Assembly: GCA_020348985.1 (NCBI GenBank)
Contig: CP070761.1
Coordinates: forward strand, 1,631,565 to 1,651,126
Direction of reading: 5' to 3'
DNA: 19,562 nt
Source: Candidatus Thorarchaeota archaeon
GTDB lineage: Archaea > Asgardarchaeota > Thorarchaeia > Thorarchaeales > Thorarchaeaceae
Shown: positions 4,748 through 19,560 of the stretch, one piece after another
Numbering within the stretch: the stretch's first letter is position 1
Layout of the letters: every line of letters begins with the position of its first letter
Translations under genes and position numbers: made by a program
The notes under the pieces: generated by a model
The model's database searches: none
Seen by the model: only the letters and a program-made list of their open reading frames with translations
Told to the model about the DNA's origin: nothing

Positions 4748-5308
4748 CTACAAACCAGGTCTCAAGAAGCTTTCTACGGCTTGCTTGGCCCTCATTCGTG
4801 AATTGCTACCGGCATTGATGAATATCTCAGCAACACCCTCACCTGTCTTGGCACTTGTCAAGAAGAAGTCAAGAGAAAGCAGATCTGCCATTTGTTTGCC
4901 TTCCTCTGGCGTGATTGCTATTTTGTCTTCCAGGTCAATCTTGTTTCCAACCAGAGACCCCCCAAAAGGGTTCTCTGAAGGCATGCAGATGCCTTCCGTC
5001 AGATTTGTGTACCATTCAGCTACTTCTCTCAAGGAGCCCCGATTGGTGACGTCATAGACTAGAATGAGATGGTGAGCTCCTTTGTAGAATCGCCCACCCA
5101 AGCCACGAAAGGACTGCTGGCCACCCAAGTCAACAAGGCTAAGAACAACCTTGCCGTCCGGAAGTTCAAGTTGTGCTACGTTCATCATGACGCCAATCGT
5201 GGCGGAGTAGGTAGTTTCGAACTCTCCACCAAGATAGGCCTTAATCAACGAAGTCTTGCCTGAATTAGGAGGACCTGCAATCAGTGTCTTGAAGACCTCG
5301 GCAGACAT
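4748..5308 (-). CDS. Rab/Ras-like small GTPase
   Basis: G1 GPPNSGKTS, G2 YSATIG, G3 DLGGQ, RFYKGA, G4 NKID, G5 TSAK. No C-terminal CAAX/CC. ATG 5308 preferred over GTG 5350. Confidence 0.93.
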   Translation of the reverse strand: MSAEVFKTLIAGPPNSGKTSLIKAYLGGEFETTYSATIGVMMNVAQLELPDGKVVLSLVDLGGQQSFRGLGGRFYKGAHHLILVYDVTNRGSLREVAEWYTNLTEGICMPSENPFGGSLVGNKIDLEDKIAITPEEGKQMADLLSLDFFLTSAKTGEGVAEIFINAGSNSRMRAKQAVESFLRPGL

Positions 5309-5481
5309 ATCGACCACTCGTCCAAGTTTACAGTTAGCCCCGTGTCCCACTTATGAGCGTTGTTCGGGCGTTCTCGTGCATCGGTGTGATGCAATGCTTA
5401 GCGGGTATTTGTGCATTACTCTAGCTCATTTGAGACATGCCGTAAGTGTTTTAGAGGAGTCGAGCAAGGCTTCCAAACACG

Positions 5482-13048: not shown

Positions 13049-13599
13049 TTTGGTCACATCAGAGAGCAGCGAGTCCGCTCTTTGACTTTGGCTCATTGGA
13101 CGAGTCCAACAAGGATTCAATATCTATTCGAGAGATGCGCATGTCTGCGGCCGCCTCTCAAGCAACTGTTCTCGTTTATGGCGGTTTCACGGTAACGAAC
13201 ACAAACCAAGTAGCCAAAACGGACGCGTAGTTGTACTGATAGTCATGAATCTTCTACCCCCCGCCTCAATCTACTGATTCTGCAGATTGTGCAATCTACA
13301 TGACATCGTAATCAAAAAGAGGTGAAATGCCCTCAGAATGTGCTCCTGTGCTTATCTGAGGCCATTTTCACGTACAATATGCTAGACGGTGTCTATCACC
13401 ACGAACCATGCCTACCAAGGCCACTCTGGTTCGTCATCAGGCCCACGATATCCTGACATCGTTATCAAGGGTTACTGGCAATAAGTATCTAGTAGTGCAA
13501 GTGGAAACATCGTACAGAAACGCCCTGGTGGGAAAAGGCTATCAGAAAACGGGGAGATTGGAAATTGGGACCATTCAGCCGACGTGGAGGGAAGAGCCT

Positions 13600-15204
13600 A
13601 TGTCAGTGGATTTCAGAAAAGACGTTAGGCGTCTCTGGAGGAAGTACTCGGGGATTGTGGAACAGCTTTTTGGATTGGAAGCAGAGGCGTGTCCTGATAT
13701 CATAGTCTCGGGATCCTGCAATGAAGAAGGCCAATGCATGGGGTGTCTGGAAGAGAATGGAAGAGCGTGTATACCAGAGGATGTTATCTCTGGACGGTTC
13801 CCGTTGGAGGGAGTAGTATCCAGACTCTGCCTAATGGCGGCCATATCTCGAGAGCATGTCTGCATAGAGGCCATAGAGGATATTGGATCCGAATTCGGCC
13901 GACAGAACATCGAGAAGAGTGCAAGAGCTGAATGGTTGGACCGGTGGGCCTCTGTGAAACCTAGGAGAGTGCAGAATGCAACCACGGTTCATGACCCTTC
14001 GAAGACGTATTCAAAGCTGTATGAGTTGGTTGGGCAGAAAGCGATTACGGAGCTAGTTCGGGAAATTTCGTACATGGCAAAGCACAAAGAAAGACTAGGT
14101 GTGCAAGATTATGTTGGATTCTTGAGAAGACGGTTTCAGAGATTCTCCGTCCAGCTGAGTCAGACCGAAGTTAGTATCGTGAACTGCCTTCTCAATAATG
14201 GTTCTGTGACCTACAAGAGAATTGGTGAGAACCTGGGACTTACACCTGAATGGGTTTCTCGCAGGATTTCGAACCTGCTAAATCGATCCATTCTGAGGAA
14301 ATTCAACAGAGTCCCGTTCTCAAGGATGGGAATCCGGATGTTCTATGTCCTCCTTTCTTCAGCTGGAGGCGTGGAGAGATCACTTAGATATCTTACACGA
14401 TGCCCATTTCTATATGCATACAGAAGAGTACTCTCGAGTTTGTGGGATGTTCTTGCGATTCTTGCTGTTCCTGAGAACATTGACAATCTCGAGGCGCTCA
14501 GACGTTTTGCCGACAGGGCCGAAAACGACTCGCTGAGGATTAGGATTCTCGAAATAGCTTCCTCAGGAGTCAGTTACTGCTTTGACCACTATGACACTGA
14601 GTTGGGACTGTGGAACATACCTTGGGACCTACTCCACTTCCAGCTCAAGAGAATCCACAGAGACAAGCTTTGGTCCGCCTTTCCAAGAGTAGACACACCA
14701 AGCTTGAGAGCAGGATTAATCATTGACAATCTGGACTTACGAATTCTGAACGAAGTGAAGCGTGGCATTTCTTCCGTAGGAAAGATTCGAAGCAGTCTTC
14801 AGATTGGTCAAGAGCGTGCGGCAGAGCGTCTCAAGAGATTGCGGAAGGCTGGAATCATACTTACATCTTGGGAGGTTCATAACATCGGGTTGAATGAATG
14901 CATTTTCCTTACGTGTAACGATCCTGAGCTCTCCAATGCGATTGCTGCTTGGGTCCAGCGGCTTCCTAAGAACATAGTCTCCTTTGATTCGGACGGCTGT
15001 CTTCTTATGATAAGTCAGCTACCAAAAGGTGGAGCGTTCGGACTAATCTCTGCTGTAGCGCACTTTGAGTCGAAAGCCCACGTTGAGGCTCTTGATGTGG
15101 CGATGTACGGAGCAAGAGGGTTTCCATACGACTACTGGGACACAAACAGCCAATCATGGATGTGCAATCGAAGAGAGCTCGAGGACTGGTTATCACTCCG
15201 CTGA
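13600..15204 (+). CDS. Large transcriptional regulator with two Lrp/AsnC-type wHTH modules and an N-terminal domain of unknown function
   Basis: LSQTEVSIVNCLLNNGSVTYKRIGENLGLTPEWVSRRISNL and IDNLDLRILNEVKRGISSVGKIRSSLQIGQERAAERLKRL. The ORF is open from 13408; ATG 13600 follows GGAGG and is the likelier start. Confidence 0.8.
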   Translation: MSVDFRKDVRRLWRKYSGIVEQLFGLEAEACPDIIVSGSCNEEGQCMGCLEENGRACIPEDVISGRFPLEGVVSRLCLMAAISREHVCIEAIEDIGSEFGRQNIEKSARAEWLDRWASVKPRRVQNATTVHDPSKTYSKLYELVGQKAITELVREISYMAKHKERLGVQDYVGFLRRRFQRFSVQLSQTEVSIVNCLLNNGSVTYKRIGENLGLTPEWVSRRISNLLNRSILRKFNRVPFSRMGIRMFYVLLSSAGGVERSLRYLTRCPFLYAYRRVLSSLWDVLAILAVPENIDNLEALRRFADRAENDSLRIRILEIASSGVSYCFDHYDTELGLWNIPWDLLHFQLKRIHRDKLWSAFPRVDTPSLRAGLIIDNLDLRILNEVKRGISSVGKIRSSLQIGQERAAERLKRLRKAGIILTSWEVHNIGLNECIFLTCNDPELSNAIAAWVQRLPKNIVSFDSDGCLLMISQLPKGGAFGLISAVAHFESKAHVEALDVAMYGARGFPYDYWDTNSQSWMCNRRELEDWLSLR

Positions 15205-15240: not shown

Positions 15241-15732
15241 CTAGCCTGGCAAGCTTGGCTTTGGACGTGGCATCTCGGTGTCTGTCCAAAGCTCGTAGTA
15301 GTTCTCGACCTTCGTGAATCCGAGCCTTCTGTACAAGCCAGAACTCATCTCGGTATTATGAAGTGTGAACTTCTTTATCCCCCTCTTGGTGAAGAATGAC
15401 ACAACCTCAATCATGAGAGCCGTAGCAATCCCCTTTCTTCTGAATTCCGGTTCTACAAAGACATTGTGAATATAGGCTATGCGCGCGCATTGGATCTTTC
15501 TTGGATTGGGAAGTCTTGAGTAGACTGACACTGCGCATCCCCCAACCACCTCACCATTCTCAGTAGCCAAGAAGCACTTGATACTGTCATCCCATTCATT
15601 TTCCATAAAGTCTTGAATCTTTGGAGTTGCTCTTCTCAGCAGCTCATCATCATACCCCATACTTCTAAACATCTCTATTCGATGATGAATTATTCGTGGG
15701 ATATCATCTTTCTGCGCCAGTCTGATTTTCAT
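15241..15732 (-). CDS. GNAT family N-acetyltransferase
   Basis: Motif A NVFVEPEFRRKGIATALM, and LYRRLGF. Confidence 0.92.
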   Translation of the reverse strand: MKIRLAQKDDIPRIIHHRIEMFRSMGYDDELLRRATPKIQDFMENEWDDSIKCFLATENGEVVGGCAVSVYSRLPNPRKIQCARIAYIHNVFVEPEFRRKGIATALMIEVVSFFTKRGIKKFTLHNTEMSSGLYRRLGFTKVENYYELWTDTEMPRPKPSLPG

Positions 15733-15756: not shown

Positions 15757-16593
15757 CTACGATTCAGCTGTCTTGGTAGCTTTGAATAGGGCAAAACCGG
15801 GAAAAACCTCAACTGCACTAGTCTTAGGAAAGAATTCATCGATTATCCGTGATATGAAAACACCTTCTTTTACTCCCCAATCAGGAAACAGGTTCAATGA
15901 AGTGAATCTCAAGAAAGCGTCCAGGGAAGGGGCCTGCGGTTCGTCGAAGAAAGTGAGAGGAGAGGATATAAAAAGAGCCCCACTATCCTTCAACAACCTA
16001 CGGATTTCTGCAATCACCAGTGGCAGAATCCTGTCTTCGGGGACCCCGCTAAGCCAGACAAGTGAGTATCTGCTAGACCTAGCCCTCATTTCAGTTAGGT
16101 CGCCCTTGACCCTACGATGGGGGATTTCGTGGAGTGAGTTTGAAGTTTCCTCTCCGAGAACATGCAGTTTTGTGCCGTTACATCTTCTGACCAGGGTCTT
16201 TAGAAGCTCCAAATCAAAATCGTTCAATCTCTGCGGAGTAGCGAAGAGGACTCTACCAGAAAATAGGCTGATGTCTGTAGGCACTAGTTTGCATGCACAG
16301 GCGATCCTGTAGTGACAATACTTCACATAGAAGTGGGCGATTGTGTCTATTGCAGACTTCATCATCTCGCGAAGTCTCGTCTTTCCGTTGTCACCTACTC
16401 TGTAGACTCTTCGTGGCGGACCATGAGGACTAGGTTGTATCTCGCTTGCCACCAGCCCTCGTGACTCCATTTGATGAAGCCAACGGTAGAGAGTCGTGAT
16501 CATGATGTTTTGGTCATCTTGTTCCAATGTCTTGAGTAGATCATAACCGTGGCTTGGACTACTGTCTAAGGTAAGCAGGATTCTATCTTTCAA
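15757..16593 (-). CDS. PadR-family wHTH fused to a degenerate class I methyltransferase-like domain
   Basis: N-term ILLTLDSSPSHGYDL...LYRWLHQMESRGLV...GPPRRVYRVGDNGK (PadR). C-term VKGDLTEM...RYSLVW...IAEIRRLLKDSGALFI (MTase-like). Confidence 0.82.
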   Translation of the reverse strand: MKDRILLTLDSSPSHGYDLLKTLEQDDQNIMITTLYRWLHQMESRGLVASEIQPSPHGPPRRVYRVGDNGKTRLREMMKSAIDTIAHFYVKYCHYRIACACKLVPTDISLFSGRVLFATPQRLNDFDLELLKTLVRRCNGTKLHVLGEETSNSLHEIPHRRVKGDLTEMRARSSRYSLVWLSGVPEDRILPLVIAEIRRLLKDSGALFISSPLTFFDEPQAPSLDAFLRFTSLNLFPDWGVKEGVFISRIIDEFFPKTSAVEVFPGFALFKATKTAES

Positions 16594-16620: not shown

Positions 16621-17223
16621 TCACACCCCTGCTGTTTCAGGAGACTTCTCTGTCACAATCATCCAGTCCTGATGCTCTTCCTCTGAGTATGTGTAATTGC
16701 GTAGATACTCTCTTAGCAGGGGCCCAATCGCGATTGTGAAGATGGAGCCCATTATCACTTGAACGGAGTTGATTGTCACAAGCTCAATCAGTGCAACTCC
16801 GAATGGCACACCTAGGACAAAAACCTCACCCAAGAAGTAGCCCGTCAGCATGGCTGCTGAGCCGAAGAGGACACCAATCACGTCCCACCAACTTGCCCTT
16901 TCTCGCAATCTTGTTCTACTACTGAAAAGGCCTACGAAGAAACCTTCGAACCCTTTTGCAAAGAATGTTATCGGCATAAACGCAGGGAAACCGAGAAGAG
17001 CATCTCCCAAAGCCGAACCAGTCCCCCCTGCAATGAAGCCTCCAATGGGTCCTAGAAGTAGACCACTTAGCATCACAAATGTGTCTCCGAGATTGAAGTA
17101 TCCTTGCGTTGAAGGAAATGGCACAACGAAGACAACTGTGGCAATGGTTGAAAGAGATGTAAAGATTGCAACCATTGCGATGAACATTGATCTGTTCGAA
17201 TTCTTGGTTTTGAAAGGCTCCAT
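16621..17223 (-). CDS. ECF transporter S-component, HmpT/PdxU-like
   Basis: AMVAIFTSL (AxxxA-like helix 1), VPFPSTQGYFNLGD, LLGPIGGFIAGGTGSALGD, TFFAKGFEG; about 6 TM. ATG 17223 (TTG 17247 is an alternative). No EcfA/T genes in the window. Substrate is inferred only. Confidence 0.88.
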   Translation of the reverse strand: MEPFKTKNSNRSMFIAMVAIFTSLSTIATVVFVVPFPSTQGYFNLGDTFVMLSGLLLGPIGGFIAGGTGSALGDALLGFPAFMPITFFAKGFEGFFVGLFSSRTRLRERASWWDVIGVLFGSAAMLTGYFLGEVFVLGVPFGVALIELVTINSVQVIMGSIFTIAIGPLLREYLRNYTYSEEEHQDWMIVTEKSPETAGV

Positions 17224-17255
17224 AGTTGATCCACGTGATTCTAGCAAGACATAGG

Positions 17256-17286
17256 AATATATAATAGTGGCCTTATATATAAGCCA
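17256..17286. promoter_or_regulatory. Overlapping divergent TATA promoters with palindrome
   Basis: ATATATAA at 17257-17264 and perfect palindrome CTTATATATAAG at 17272-17283, in a 71-bp divergent gap. Confidence 0.6.
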
Positions 17287-17294
17287 AAACTGTA

Positions 17295-18791
17295 ATGTCT
17301 CATACTCAGGGATTGAAATGCACTCAATGCGGAAAAGAGTTCACCTACCAGTTTCCCATGAATATATGTCCCGAATGTGGAAGTGTCCTCTTTATTCATT
17401 ATGACATTGAGGATGTCAAGAATCATCTCACAGCCCGGAAATTGAGGAACCGAAGACCCGGTGTTTGGAAGTATTCAGAGCTATTACCTGACATAGATGC
17501 GAGTAAAAGAGTCTCATTAGGAGAAGGAGGCACGTATCTTCACAAGTGTGATCGTCTTGCAGCAGAGATTGGGTTGGAGGAGCTCTATCTCAAGGATGAA
17601 ACGACAAATCCGACTGGATCATTTCTTGACCGAGGAATGTCTTTGGAGATTTCCGCTGCAAGACAGTGGGATATAAAGTCAGTTCACAACAGAGGGTTAG
17701 ATGCCGGGAATATGTCGGCATCACTTGTTGCTTATGCCGCCCGTGGAGGTCTTGGGTGCAAGACATTCATCGTGAAGATGGGTGATATCCATTTGGGTAA
17801 ACTACATCAAATCTTGGCTCATGCTTCTGAGATTGAGATTGTTGGTAGCAAAGATGAAGCTCTCAGAAGATCTGAGGAAGAGAGCAGATGGAGTCACTGT
17901 GTCAGGTGCACAAATCCTCATTTTCTTGAAGGTAAGAAGACAACGGTGTTGGAGATCTACGAACAGCTGAATTGGGACCGTCCCGACTGGATTGTTGCAC
18001 CAATGGGAACAGGCGGGAATGTTTCCGCTATTTGGAAAGGGATTCGTGAGCTAGAATCAGTTGGACTCATCGACACAACACGCCCTCACATTGTAGGTGC
18101 CCAAGCCGCATGCTGTGCTCCCATAGTGAATGCCTATGAAGAGATATCGGGAAAAGTCAATCCTTCCGGCGCCAAAACAACTGTAGCACTTCCGATAGCG
18201 ATATCGAATCCGCTTTGTGAAAAGACCGCTCTCGAGGTGATTCTGCAGTCAAACGGCTTGGGCATGAGAGTCACTGATAAAGAAATCCTGAACGCAGTCA
18301 TGCTTTTGTCCAGACTTGAGGGCGTCTACGCCGAGCCAGCATCTGCAACAACTATAGCAGTTCTTCAAAAGCTAGTAAAATCTGGTAGAATTCAAAGGGA
18401 CGAGAGAGTCGTCTGCATAATCACTGGTACGGGGCTGAAGTATCCTGAATTTGCAAAGACTCTGGTTGAGAGGAATGACGAGCTCGAGCAGCTATTGACG
18501 GAGATGGAGCGCAGGAAAGTTACTACCCAACTAGGTCAAACGAAAATCCAAATCTTACGAATTCTAGCTGAAGGAGAAACGTACGGGTATGAGATATGGA
18601 AGAAACTTGGAGAAGTCGCTGGAATAAGCGTGAAGGTGCCCGGTGTATATCAACATCTATCAGACTTGGTAAATAACGGACTAGTCATCAAAACAAAGAC
18701 AATTCAGGTCCTCAAGAGGATGAGAACTTACTACGGAATCTCAGAAAAGGGGAGATATACAGTCACCCAGCTAGACAAACTCGATCGATGA
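17295..18791 (+). CDS. Threonine-synthase-like (fold-type II PLP) protein lacking the catalytic Lys, with N-terminal Zn ribbon and C-terminal PadR-type wHTH; probable regulator
   Basis: CTQC/CPEC; VSLGEGGT; LKDETTNPTGSFLDRG; EGKKT; PMGTGGN; EPASA; ITGTGLK. C-term TKIQILRILAEGETYGYEIWKKL...VYQHLSDLVNNGLV...RTYYGISEKGR. Confidence 0.88.
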   Translation: MSHTQGLKCTQCGKEFTYQFPMNICPECGSVLFIHYDIEDVKNHLTARKLRNRRPGVWKYSELLPDIDASKRVSLGEGGTYLHKCDRLAAEIGLEELYLKDETTNPTGSFLDRGMSLEISAARQWDIKSVHNRGLDAGNMSASLVAYAARGGLGCKTFIVKMGDIHLGKLHQILAHASEIEIVGSKDEALRRSEEESRWSHCVRCTNPHFLEGKKTTVLEIYEQLNWDRPDWIVAPMGTGGNVSAIWKGIRELESVGLIDTTRPHIVGAQAACCAPIVNAYEEISGKVNPSGAKTTVALPIAISNPLCEKTALEVILQSNGLGMRVTDKEILNAVMLLSRLEGVYAEPASATTIAVLQKLVKSGRIQRDERVVCIITGTGLKYPEFAKTLVERNDELEQLLTEMERRKVTTQLGQTKIQILRILAEGETYGYEIWKKLGEVAGISVKVPGVYQHLSDLVNNGLVIKTKTIQVLKRMRTYYGISEKGRYTVTQLDKLDR

Positions 18792-18800
18792 ACCCAGAAC

Positions 18801-19301
18801 TCACATCTGCTCGATACTGCCACCTGAAGCAATCGTGGTTCGACCTCCGTTTCTGATAGGAAGATGCATTAGAGATTCCGATGTAGTGAACCCGCAGGAT
18901 GTGTATAGCCGTCGACTCACCTCGGACGCATGAAGAATAGCTACTCCTACTCTTTCTGACATACAGACGCCGACCACGTGGTTTAGAAGTTCTCTTCCAA
19001 CTCCATTTCTTCTGTCTTTGGGCTCAACGTACATATTGAATATGTAGGCCATCAGGCCTGTACGTTGCCTTGTGAGGGGAGGAATCCTGAAAACACTAAG
19101 ACCACACCCTCCTATGACATCTCCGTCTCTTTCAGCAAGGAAGTAACGAAAGTCGTCTGTCCAATTCATTGTGAGATAACGCTTGGTCAATGCATCGGTT
19201 TCATCGATGACCTCCTCCGAAGCACCCGAATCACGGAACAAGCCAAGGCGATGATGAAGGATCCACTCAGCATCTGTTCTTGCTGCATCCCGGATATTCA
19301 T
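18801..19301 (-). CDS. GNAT family N-acetyltransferase (paralogue of 15241-15732)
   Basis: NMYVEPKDRRNGVGRELL, LYTSCGF. Start set at MNIRDA (19301) by alignment with the paralogue MKIRLA and an AT-rich TATA-like element at about 19318-19333. Confidence 0.9.
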   Translation of the reverse strand: MNIRDAARTDAEWILHHRLGLFRDSGASEEVIDETDALTKRYLTMNWTDDFRYFLAERDGDVIGGCGLSVFRIPPLTRQRTGLMAYIFNMYVEPKDRRNGVGRELLNHVVGVCMSERVGVAILHASEVSRRLYTSCGFTTSESLMHLPIRNGGRTTIASGGSIEQM

Positions 19302-19410
19302 TTCACATGTTTTAGTCTTAATATTGATAAAAGAGCCTAGCAGCAATCCTGCATACACTTGGCCTGGGCAGATTTCTTCCGTCAACCTCGTTATGTCAGA
19401 GTCTGACCAA

Positions 19411-19560
19411 TTACACAACGGTGTAACCTGAAGGTACACTTCCGTCATGTTGCTCATTTGCTGCATCGTGTACATCGAGAGAATCCTTTACTCTATACCT
19501 GTCTGCATCCTCGAAGAAATCGACAAGTCGAGTGAAGGTCTTGATTTCGGCGCCATGCAT
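19411..19560 (-). CDS. Probable 3' end of a gene entering from beyond the window
   Basis: Open frame from the window edge: ...HGAEIKTFTRLVDFFEDADRYRVKDSLDVHDAANEQHDGSVPSGYTVV*; no family recognised. Confidence 0.4.
   Translation of the reverse strand: MHGAEIKTFTRLVDFFEDADRYRVKDSLDVHDAANEQHDGSVPSGYTVV

Follow-up and report, generated by a model that had tools for sequence, protein, structure and literature searches.

Here we describe a gene of a Candidatus Thorarchaeota archaeon whose product joins the fold of threonine synthase (ThrC) to a DNA-binding domain, and which we propose as a candidate regulator of vitamin B6 genes. It lies on the plus strand at 17295-18791 of the stretch of DNA analysed, 19,562 nucleotides of contig CP070761.1 (positions 1,631,565 to 1,651,126; hereafter the window, whose own numbering is used throughout), divergent from a gene for an energy-coupling factor (ECF) S-component. 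The protein combines a zinc ribbon, a fold-type II domain of the kind that uses pyridoxal 5'-phosphate (PLP) and a PadR-type winged helix-turn-helix (wHTH). The features on which the argument rests are the following.

17295-18791, plus strand: regulator gene, 498 residues and a stop codon, encoding a zinc ribbon, a ThrC fold without the lysine and a PadR wHTH.
17319-17378, plus strand: N-terminal zinc ribbon, CxxC...CxxC, residues 9-28 (C9, C12, C25 and C28), from the family alignment.
17511-18428, plus strand: fold-type II PLP domain (PALP/ThrC-like), residues 73-378, the proposed sensor (Pfam PF00291, 1.7e-56).
17625-17627, plus strand: codon CTT, encoding Leu111 where ThrC has the Schiff-base lysine, from alignment to solved ThrC structures.
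17913-17933, plus strand: NPHFLEG, with Phe210 replacing the arginine of NPxRxEG, from alignment to ThrC structures.
18000-18020, plus strand: PMGTGGN glycine loop, residues 236-242, retained, from motif and conservation.
18552-18761, plus strand: PadR-type wHTH, residues 420-489, followed by a C-terminal helix (Pfam PF03551, 2.2e-11).
17257-17264, no strand: ATATATAA box, about midway in the 71-bp intergenic region and separated from the palindrome by 7 bp, from alignment of 45 loci.
17272-17283, no strand: 12-bp palindrome CTTATATATAAG, the proposed operator, from sequence conservation.
16621-17223, minus strand: divergent ECF S-component, 200 residues from the ATG at 17223 (TTG at 17247 is the start in the list of open reading frames) (PF07155, 1.2e-31).

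The open reading frame (ORF) at 17295-18791 is uninterrupted for 498 residues and, as a first-pass annotation of the sequence had claimed, continues into an intact PadR-type wHTH, which scores 44.1 bits against the Pfam cut-off of 27 for PF03551. Among 87 family members, C9, C12 and C28 of the zinc ribbon are invariant and C25 is nearly so; archaeal-type ThrC models cover the same N-terminal ribbon, with alignments beginning at position 2-7. ThrC entries in the PDB (2zsj, 6cgq and 2d1f) match with E about 1e-54 and 35-39% identity. An AlphaFold2 model computed from the 87-sequence alignment comprises a ThrC fold and a wHTH, with a mean predicted local distance difference test (pLDDT) score of 91.9, and Foldseek gives a target-normalised TM-score of 0.88 for this model against ThrC 2zsj. 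The modelled wHTH is built of three helices and a beta-hairpin wing, followed by a terminal helix, at a pLDDT of about 90, and the linker between the PALP and PadR domains (residues about 381-410) is modelled poorly, with pLDDT below 50 at 407-410.

By family sequence and fold the protein belongs with ThrC, while the Schiff-base lysine and the arginine of NPxRxEG are both missing. This lysine is essential in fold-type II PLP enzymes. The motif NPTGSFKDRG reads NPTGSFLDRG (residues 105-114, nucleotides 17607-17636), with Leu111 aligned to the lysine of 2zsj, 6cgq and 2d1f, and the codon CTT differs from AAA and AAG at all three positions; the earlier claim of a genuine substitution is borne out. 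In the same alignments NPHFLEG stands opposite NPYR(I/L)EG, and the loss of the substrate-phosphate arginine that had also been claimed proves to be family-wide, the residue changing to Phe, Leu or Tyr. A third proposed change, ASTGN to LDAGN, holds for this protein and fails as a trait of the family: the alteration, which comes with a two-residue insertion, is private to the protein and about 7 close relatives, and the family consensus keeps (C)GSTGN. Retention of the PMGTGGN loop, which we take from ThrC structures to be the loop that holds the cofactor phosphate, and of EPASA (347-351) and TGxGLK (here TGTGLK, 377-382) had been noted as well and stands.

The absence of the lysine extends far beyond this protein. 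A close set was formed from the 120 best matches (45-81% identity) in a search of 5.8 billion proteins, each of which has both PALP and PadR domains and whose named sources are Thor-, Loki-/Promethe-, Hod-, Odin- and Sif-archaeal bins. None of the 119 close homologues that have the lysine column carries lysine there (101 have Ile and 18 Leu), so that a check for close relatives that retain it came out empty, and the arginine column holds Phe in 118 and Tyr in 2 of the 120. Mean column identity is 61% over 30 members from several Asgard lineages. A distant set of 150 proteins, representatives at 50% identity from an HMMER search run exhaustively against 1.84 billion cluster representatives, repeats the pattern: apart from P0177 and P0183, proteins with a C-terminal extension of 75-99 residues have no lysine at this position, showing Ile, Leu, Val, Met, Thr, Asn, Ala, Phe, Ser or Arg. 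All full-length proteins without the tail keep it, and the only tail-less proteins lacking it (P0155, P0169 and P0195) are C-terminally truncated or fragmentary entries. Furthermore, a scan of archaeal genomes that represent species turned up at least 579 stretches encoding relatives with PTG[SA]F[IL]DRG; their sources are Asgard lineages, Bathyarchaeia, Nitrososphaerota, other Thermoproteota, Brockarchaeota, Methanomethylicota and one Thermoplasmata bin.

Residue by residue, 56 fusions were compared with 72 tail-less enzymes, the subclade with Lys, Arg or Ser at the lysine position being set aside. Lysine is present in 100% of the enzyme representatives and 0% of the fusions, and this position is the sole cofactor-site column that differs categorically between them. 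F110, D112, R113, N139, G238, G240, E347-P348, T377 and G380 are conserved in 88-100% of the fusions, at least as well as in the enzymes, with G238 and G240 at 95-100%. The arginine column holds Phe, Leu or Tyr in the distant fusions, and Arg is its commonest residue in the enzymes. A compensating active-site lysine was also looked for, and no lysine is conserved specifically in the fusions: K100, K169, K215, K248 and K382 are conserved in them and equally so in the enzymes, which argues that there is no substitute. In a FastTree phylogeny of the PALP core all tail-bearing representatives fall into one clade (support 0.73), suggesting a single origin. On these alignments, the loss of the lysine is an old trait of the family, not decay, and the cofactor pocket is evidently under selection in the fusions.

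Automated annotation does not register this loss. The protein scores above the NCBIfam cut-offs for ThrC (305.1 bits against 303 for PRK08197; 190.5 against 167.1 for TIGR00260) and its homologues are named 'threonine synthase' by NCBI and JGI, just as had been forecast. The genome, a single contig of 3.16 Mb, also has what the first-pass annotation had said should be sought, a separate lysine-containing ThrC, and in fact two. One (L003; 391 residues, NPTLSFKDRG, EPYRVEG, PRK08197 478 bits) lies about 0.2 Mb from the regulator gene and the other (L002; 443 residues, NPSGSFKDRP, PRK08197 337.8 bits) about 0.5 Mb away, so threonine synthesis is independent of the regulator gene. The latter paralogue (1255-2586 of its locus, plus strand; G000:C1 at about 2.158 Mb) lacks the motif arginine, reading FNCFQFEG, and may therefore act on a substrate other than O-phosphohomoserine. 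Compared with ThrC proper (TIGR00260, PRK08197; 2zsj, 6cgq, 2d1f and 1uim), the candidate regulator shares the fold, the archaeal-type zinc ribbon and the cofactor-pocket motifs, but has lost the catalytic lysine and the motif arginine, has gained a C-terminal DNA-binding domain and is surrounded by B6 genes rather than threonine genes.

A further NCBIfam 'threonine synthase' model, the equivalog PRK05638 (NF004170), which describes a sister clade, has the same zinc ribbon, ThrC fold and C-terminal wHTH and aligns to residues 7-493 of the protein, which at 288.1 bits against a cut-off of 421 is not a member; P0163, from a clade with Arg in place of the lysine, scores 451.6. The PRK05638 subclade is nested in the tail-bearing clade with support 0.993 and differs from the family described here in having Arg (rarely Lys or Ser) at the lysine position and, as neighbours, GINS/Sld5-like and MCM-like ORFs; P0177 and P0183, the two fusions that keep lysine, belong to this separate subclade. 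The name 'threonine synthase' is a misnomer for the Arg clade. Loci L118, L119 and L121-L126 carry such ThrC-PadR fusions with the motif NPTNS[FY]RDR, most of them beside a small ORF (weakly Sld5/GINS-like in L118) and a long ORF that is MCM-like by eye. An S-component-like ORF lies just downstream in L125, and in the inspected loci the gene of this clade is not adjacent to pdxS.

The genomic context of the lysine-less family points to vitamin B6. The S-component at 16621-17223 scores 110.5 bits against the cut-off of 26.7 for PF07155, and its only PDB match up to E = 1 is chain S of 4HZU (1.9e-11); it thus belongs to PF07155/COG4720 and resembles HmpT. 4HZU is HmpT/PdxU2 of Lactobacillus brevis, for which pyridoxamine has been shown as a substrate (PMC4860826), and both PdxU and PdxU2/HmpT were placed in PF07155/COG4720 by Denise et al. 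(PMC9997740). We propose that the S-component belongs to a B6-vitamer importer of the PdxU/HmpT type, a substrate predicted from this relationship.

Moreover, the pairing recurs. By tblastn, an S-component adjoins the regulator gene in 66 of 85 fetched loci, a set that includes a few duplicate copies of the same contig, and Hod-, Loki- and Thor-archaeal contigs have the same pairing. It is divergent and upstream in Asgard archaea and some Bathyarchaeia, whereas other Bathyarchaeia have it immediately after the regulator gene in the same orientation; adjacency that survives such rearrangement suggests a functional link. In further genomes the partner is pdxS: L077, L049 and L044 have it as divergent neighbour at a distance of 61-74 bp; in the Asgard genome G041, pdxT and pdxS are followed by a 95-bp spacer and the oppositely oriented regulator gene; and in G007 the regulator gene is followed by pdxS after 44 bp. 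With an S-component in 66 of the 85 loci and pdxS or pdxST in five other genomes, the partner is either a B6-type importer or PLP synthase. No thr, hom or amino-acid transport gene was found among the conserved partners examined in the inspected loci.

The intergenic region supplies a candidate operator. The palindrome starts at about -23 relative to the regulator gene, whose ATG follows 11 bp past its end. Alignment of the 45 loci on the palindrome gives the consensus ATATATAA-N7-(g)CCTATATATAGG(c), in which boxes and spacing are nearly invariant. A CCTATATATAGG-type palindrome occurs within 250 bp upstream of the regulator gene in 44 of 82 loci, mostly starting exactly at -23, and only 9 such sites lie elsewhere in 683 kb. 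The 12-mer CTTATATATAAG occurs once and TATATATA six times in the 3.16-Mb genome, which argues against a generic promoter feature of the organism. Additionally, the palindrome is found where pdxS is the divergent partner (L077, L044, L049 and L116), and the spacer between pdxS and the regulator gene in G041 holds two tandem copies, so that the element is conserved in different phyla and with either kind of partner gene. That the regulon might extend further in this genome was considered and rejected: four other YTATATATAR sites and one further TATATATA site stand in unrelated contexts and lack the flanks.

Position offers clues to how the region may work. Because the ATATATAA box lies about 35-37 bp from both start codons, it is, judging by position only, probably a TATA box shared by two genes with very short leaders. 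Relative to the regulator gene, the palindrome falls between this box and the start codon; relative to the divergent gene, it lies immediately upstream of the TATA/BRE (B recognition element) region. If ATATATAA is taken as the TATA box, the palindrome is at the position of autorepression for the regulator gene, and a protein bound there could block or recruit transcription factor B (TFB) at the divergent gene.

B6 metabolism of the host is consistent with regulated uptake. Neither PdxS (by Pfam search and tblastn) nor PdxJ was found in the genome, and 45 of 50 other regulator-bearing genomes have no PdxS match. PdxS was detected in 32 of 201 sampled genomes of the phylum and in 0 of 43 of the organism's family; these counts come from metagenome-assembled genomes, in which no match does not equal absence, although the genome of the window is one contig. 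The regulator profile also matches true ThrC, and the data on regulator and PdxS are accordingly given as simple counts. The genome encodes an ECF A-T module, and reliance on partners for B6 would agree with a regulated importer.

Three other genes adjoin the two main ones.

15757-16593, minus strand: fusion of a PadR wHTH and an O-methyltransferase-like domain (PadR 4.3e-15, Pfam; 27-bp gap to the S-component).
15241-15732, minus strand: GNAT acetyltransferase, probably the last gene of the minus-strand unit of the S-component (Pfam; 24-bp gap).
18801-19475, minus strand: second GNAT, convergent with the regulator gene, of uncertain membership in the module (Pfam; 9-bp gap).

The gene at 15757-16593 is probably co-transcribed with the S-component. 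Its 278-residue product has the wHTH at the N-terminus (AlphaFold2 pLDDT 81.6), and for the C-terminal domain Foldseek returns class-I O-methyltransferases (3mcz, 8rxg and 5f8e) at about 1e-10. No Gly-rich S-adenosylmethionine (SAM) motif is evident by eye, and the protein may therefore be a second pseudoenzyme regulator. All named sources among its 40 homologous matches are Asgard, and the gene recurs beside the S-component in Thor loci. GNATs flank the regulator module here and recur in Hod and Thor loci, with one in the same place as 18801-19475 in L009 and L010; RimI/RimL-type GNATs recur in bacterial PdxR, PdxW and PdxQ regulons (PMC5320631). Elsewhere in the window, a 598-residue ORF at 13408-15204 (plus strand) has an AsnC-type HTH at residues about 250-298 as its sole Pfam signal, and a Ras-family small GTPase is encoded at 4748-5350 (minus strand; PF00071, 5.8e-35), with a similar GTPase near the regulator gene in the Hodarchaeal locus L006. 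Such GTPases are usual in Asgard genomes.

Taken with the sequence comparisons, this context leads us to conclude that the gene product is likely a one-component transcription factor and not a threonine synthase, namely a sensor-regulator that binds B6 (PLP) non-covalently and controls B6 uptake or synthesis. In the mechanism we propose, a B6 vitamer, most probably free PLP, would bind reversibly in the lysine-less ThrC pocket, and the protein would thereby report the cellular B6 level; with no lysine at the Schiff-base position, cofactor binding can only be non-covalent. The signal would pass from the ThrC-fold domain to the PadR domain, whose winged helix, presumably dimeric, would bind the palindrome at 17272-17283. 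Occupancy of the palindrome would then set transcription of two units, the regulator gene itself and an importer operon of the S-component, probably with the PadR-methyltransferase-like gene (15757-16593) and the GNAT (15241-15732). The expected outcome is negative feedback, whereby ample B6 would reduce uptake, or pdxST expression in relatives that have it, a sign deduced from the role of the partners. A PLP-bound repressor and an apo-activator with autorepression, the pattern of bacterial PdxR, both fit the geometry.

Several observations weigh against this interpretation. At 14 pdxS loci where the gene is not linked to the regulator, the palindrome is absent. For six of these genomes, all Asgard, the ThrC-PadR gene was fetched and belongs to the Lys-to-Arg paralogues instead of the Ile/Leu type; in L096 (G237), however, the regulator is of the Ile/Leu pattern and the unlinked pdxS again lacks the palindrome. 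The result for unlinked pdxS neither supports nor refutes the operator. The distant Bathyarchaeia subgroup with the S-component downstream (L062-L090) has no CCTATATATAGG palindrome upstream of the regulator gene, so any operator there differs. The AT-rich palindrome could, moreover, be part of a bidirectional core promoter instead of an operator, and as it always accompanies the regulator gene, conservation alone cannot separate the two. On the transport side, PF07155 is named for riboflavin in Pfam, and all NCBIfam S-component models that match the S-component give scores under their cut-offs, the best of them (a FolT family, TIGR04002 and a riboflavin S-component) far under. A second PF07155 paralogue, 52% identical to the S-component of the window, has no such palindrome. 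This paralogue (G000:C1:2676551-2677009; L094 1447-2097, minus strand) has no ThrC-PadR gene nearby and an inverted repeat, GGATGC-N12-GCATCC, upstream. Nor was a B6 kinase of the PF08543 type above cut-off found in the genome, the best PdxK/PdxY/ThiD-type match scoring 24.9 bits in a 533-residue frame, which leaves the conversion of an imported unphosphorylated vitamer to PLP unexplained; alternatively, the importer may take PLP itself. Finally, ligand binding usually makes stand-alone PadR proteins leave their DNA, which would give the wrong sign of feedback unless the ThrC-PadR family works differently.

Other explanations of the same protein differ mainly in what they make of the pocket. 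The signal could be an amino acid or a metabolite of the threonine pathway (O-phosphohomoserine, homoserine or threonine), with PLP as a fixed non-covalent cofactor on which an external aldimine forms, as with gamma-aminobutyric acid in GabR. Such a role would suit a domain derived from ThrC whose consensus mostly keeps the substrate-side motifs (STGN, E212-G213 and K215-T216), and loss of the lysine does not prevent PLP enzymes from forming external aldimines. A mechanism of this kind operates in MocR regulators such as GabR (PMC5320631). The position of the substrate-phosphate arginine is nevertheless Phe, Leu or Tyr throughout the family, the ThrC paralogues are distant (about 0.5 Mb for L002 and 0.2 Mb for L003), and the inspected loci pair the gene with a B6-type importer or pdxS/pdxST, with no thr, hom or amino-acid transport gene. 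We hold this explanation to be unlikely; with a PdxU/HmpT-type S-component or pdxS/pdxST as conserved partner and never thr genes, the context speaks for a B6 vitamer as ligand rather than a metabolite of the threonine pathway. Slightly less probable still is a DNA-binding protein that has no ligand switch, a constitutive regulator or DNA-tethered PLP store whose dead domain serves only as a scaffold for dimerisation, or to buffer or carry PLP. ThrC is dimeric and PadR binds DNA as a dimer, so the fold could supply the dimer; yet a scaffold would not account for cofactor contacts that are near-invariant across phyla when only the covalent anchor is lost, which is what a reversible site predicts, and the linkage to B6 genes offers such a site a signal.

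That the protein is still an enzyme, with an unusual ThrC mechanism or another PLP-dependent activity, and binds DNA in the manner of RbkR, we regard as very improbable. The ThrC cut-offs it exceeds, the two tail-bearing representatives that retain lysine (P0177 and P0183) and the archaeal bifunctional enzyme-regulators exemplified by RbkR in the account given in PMC8305020 speak for it. Set against these are the replacement of a lysine essential to fold-type II catalysis with no other recruited, the loss of the arginine as well, two lysine-bearing paralogues available for the chemistry and the position of the lysine-keeping fusions in the Arg subclade, with its different gene context. Gene decay or an artefact of sequencing or assembly has nothing to support it save the odd residue, was rejected and has a negligible probability: the intact 498-residue frame, the difference of CTT from lysine codons at three positions and the same substitution class throughout the family (at least 579 archaeal stretches, and no lysine in 119 close homologues) make it untenable, and the 61% mean column identity of 30 members from several Asgard lineages argues likewise. 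A reversible B6 sensor remains the interpretation we prefer.

With somewhat less confidence than for the single protein, we lean towards the view that this is an undescribed, widespread archaeal family (Asgard, Bathyarchaeia, Nitrososphaerota and other Thermoproteota) in which a lysine-less fold-type II enzyme acts as a reversible PLP/B6 sensor wired through PadR to B6 uptake or pdxST. A literature search found no description of a ThrC-PadR fusion, an archaeal B6 regulator or a lysine-less ThrC pseudoenzyme, and no paper on B6 regulation or B6 transporters in Archaea; two leads proved off-topic, one on a cysH-thrC fusion only (PMC11237513) and one on the ThrC zinc ribbon only (PMC5906684). If our interpretation is correct, this would be the first B6 regulator described in Archaea, and the linkage would also identify an archaeal B6 importer, in a field where a 2025 preprint describes how the PdxST route is regulated as poorly characterised (10.1101/2025.11.07.685452) and a recent survey lists no more than three prokaryotic B6 transporters that have been characterised (PMC9997740). 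The family would supply candidates for regulator, operator and importer at once. There is also a consequence for annotation: the homologues in hundreds of archaeal genomes bear the name 'threonine synthase', so that metabolic reconstructions of Asgard and Bathyarchaeia count too many ThrC enzymes and pass over a likely regulator. For protein evolution, the family would illustrate how removing the covalent anchor alone, with the pocket kept, turns an enzyme into a reversible cofactor sensor.

Among known systems, the typical PadR proteins are stand-alone repressors of roughly 110-180 residues that are released by ligand. The present protein resembles them in a wHTH above the Pfam cut-off and a palindromic site by its own gene, but uses the module as the C-terminal output of a 498-residue protein. 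The archaeal vitamin regulators offer a closer parallel in logic. ThiR joins a ThiN-like domain to an HTH, and RbkR is presented in PMC8305020, which cites PMID 28073944, as a riboflavin kinase with an HTH. As in these, a vitamin-linked enzyme fold is joined to a DNA-binding domain that would control the genes of that vitamin. The folds and vitamins are different, RbkR is still an active enzyme, and the donor enzyme here, ThrC, uses its vitamin and does not make it. MocR regulators (PdxR, GabR, TauR, PdxW and PdxQ) likewise reuse the fold of a PLP enzyme as a one-component sensor, binding PLP through a retained lysine. Characterised members bind PLP, and the PdxR regulons, whose genes often diverge from that of the regulator, include pdxST, pdxK and the transporter gene pdxU (PMC5320631). 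MocR/PdxR proteins have an N-terminal GntR wHTH and a fold-type I aminotransferase domain, whereas the protein described here has a fold-type II PALP domain and a C-terminal PadR module, a zinc ribbon in addition, no Schiff-base lysine and an archaeal distribution; it is thus not a homologue but an analogue, and the ThrC-PadR solution would have arisen independently of the bacterial fold-type I one.

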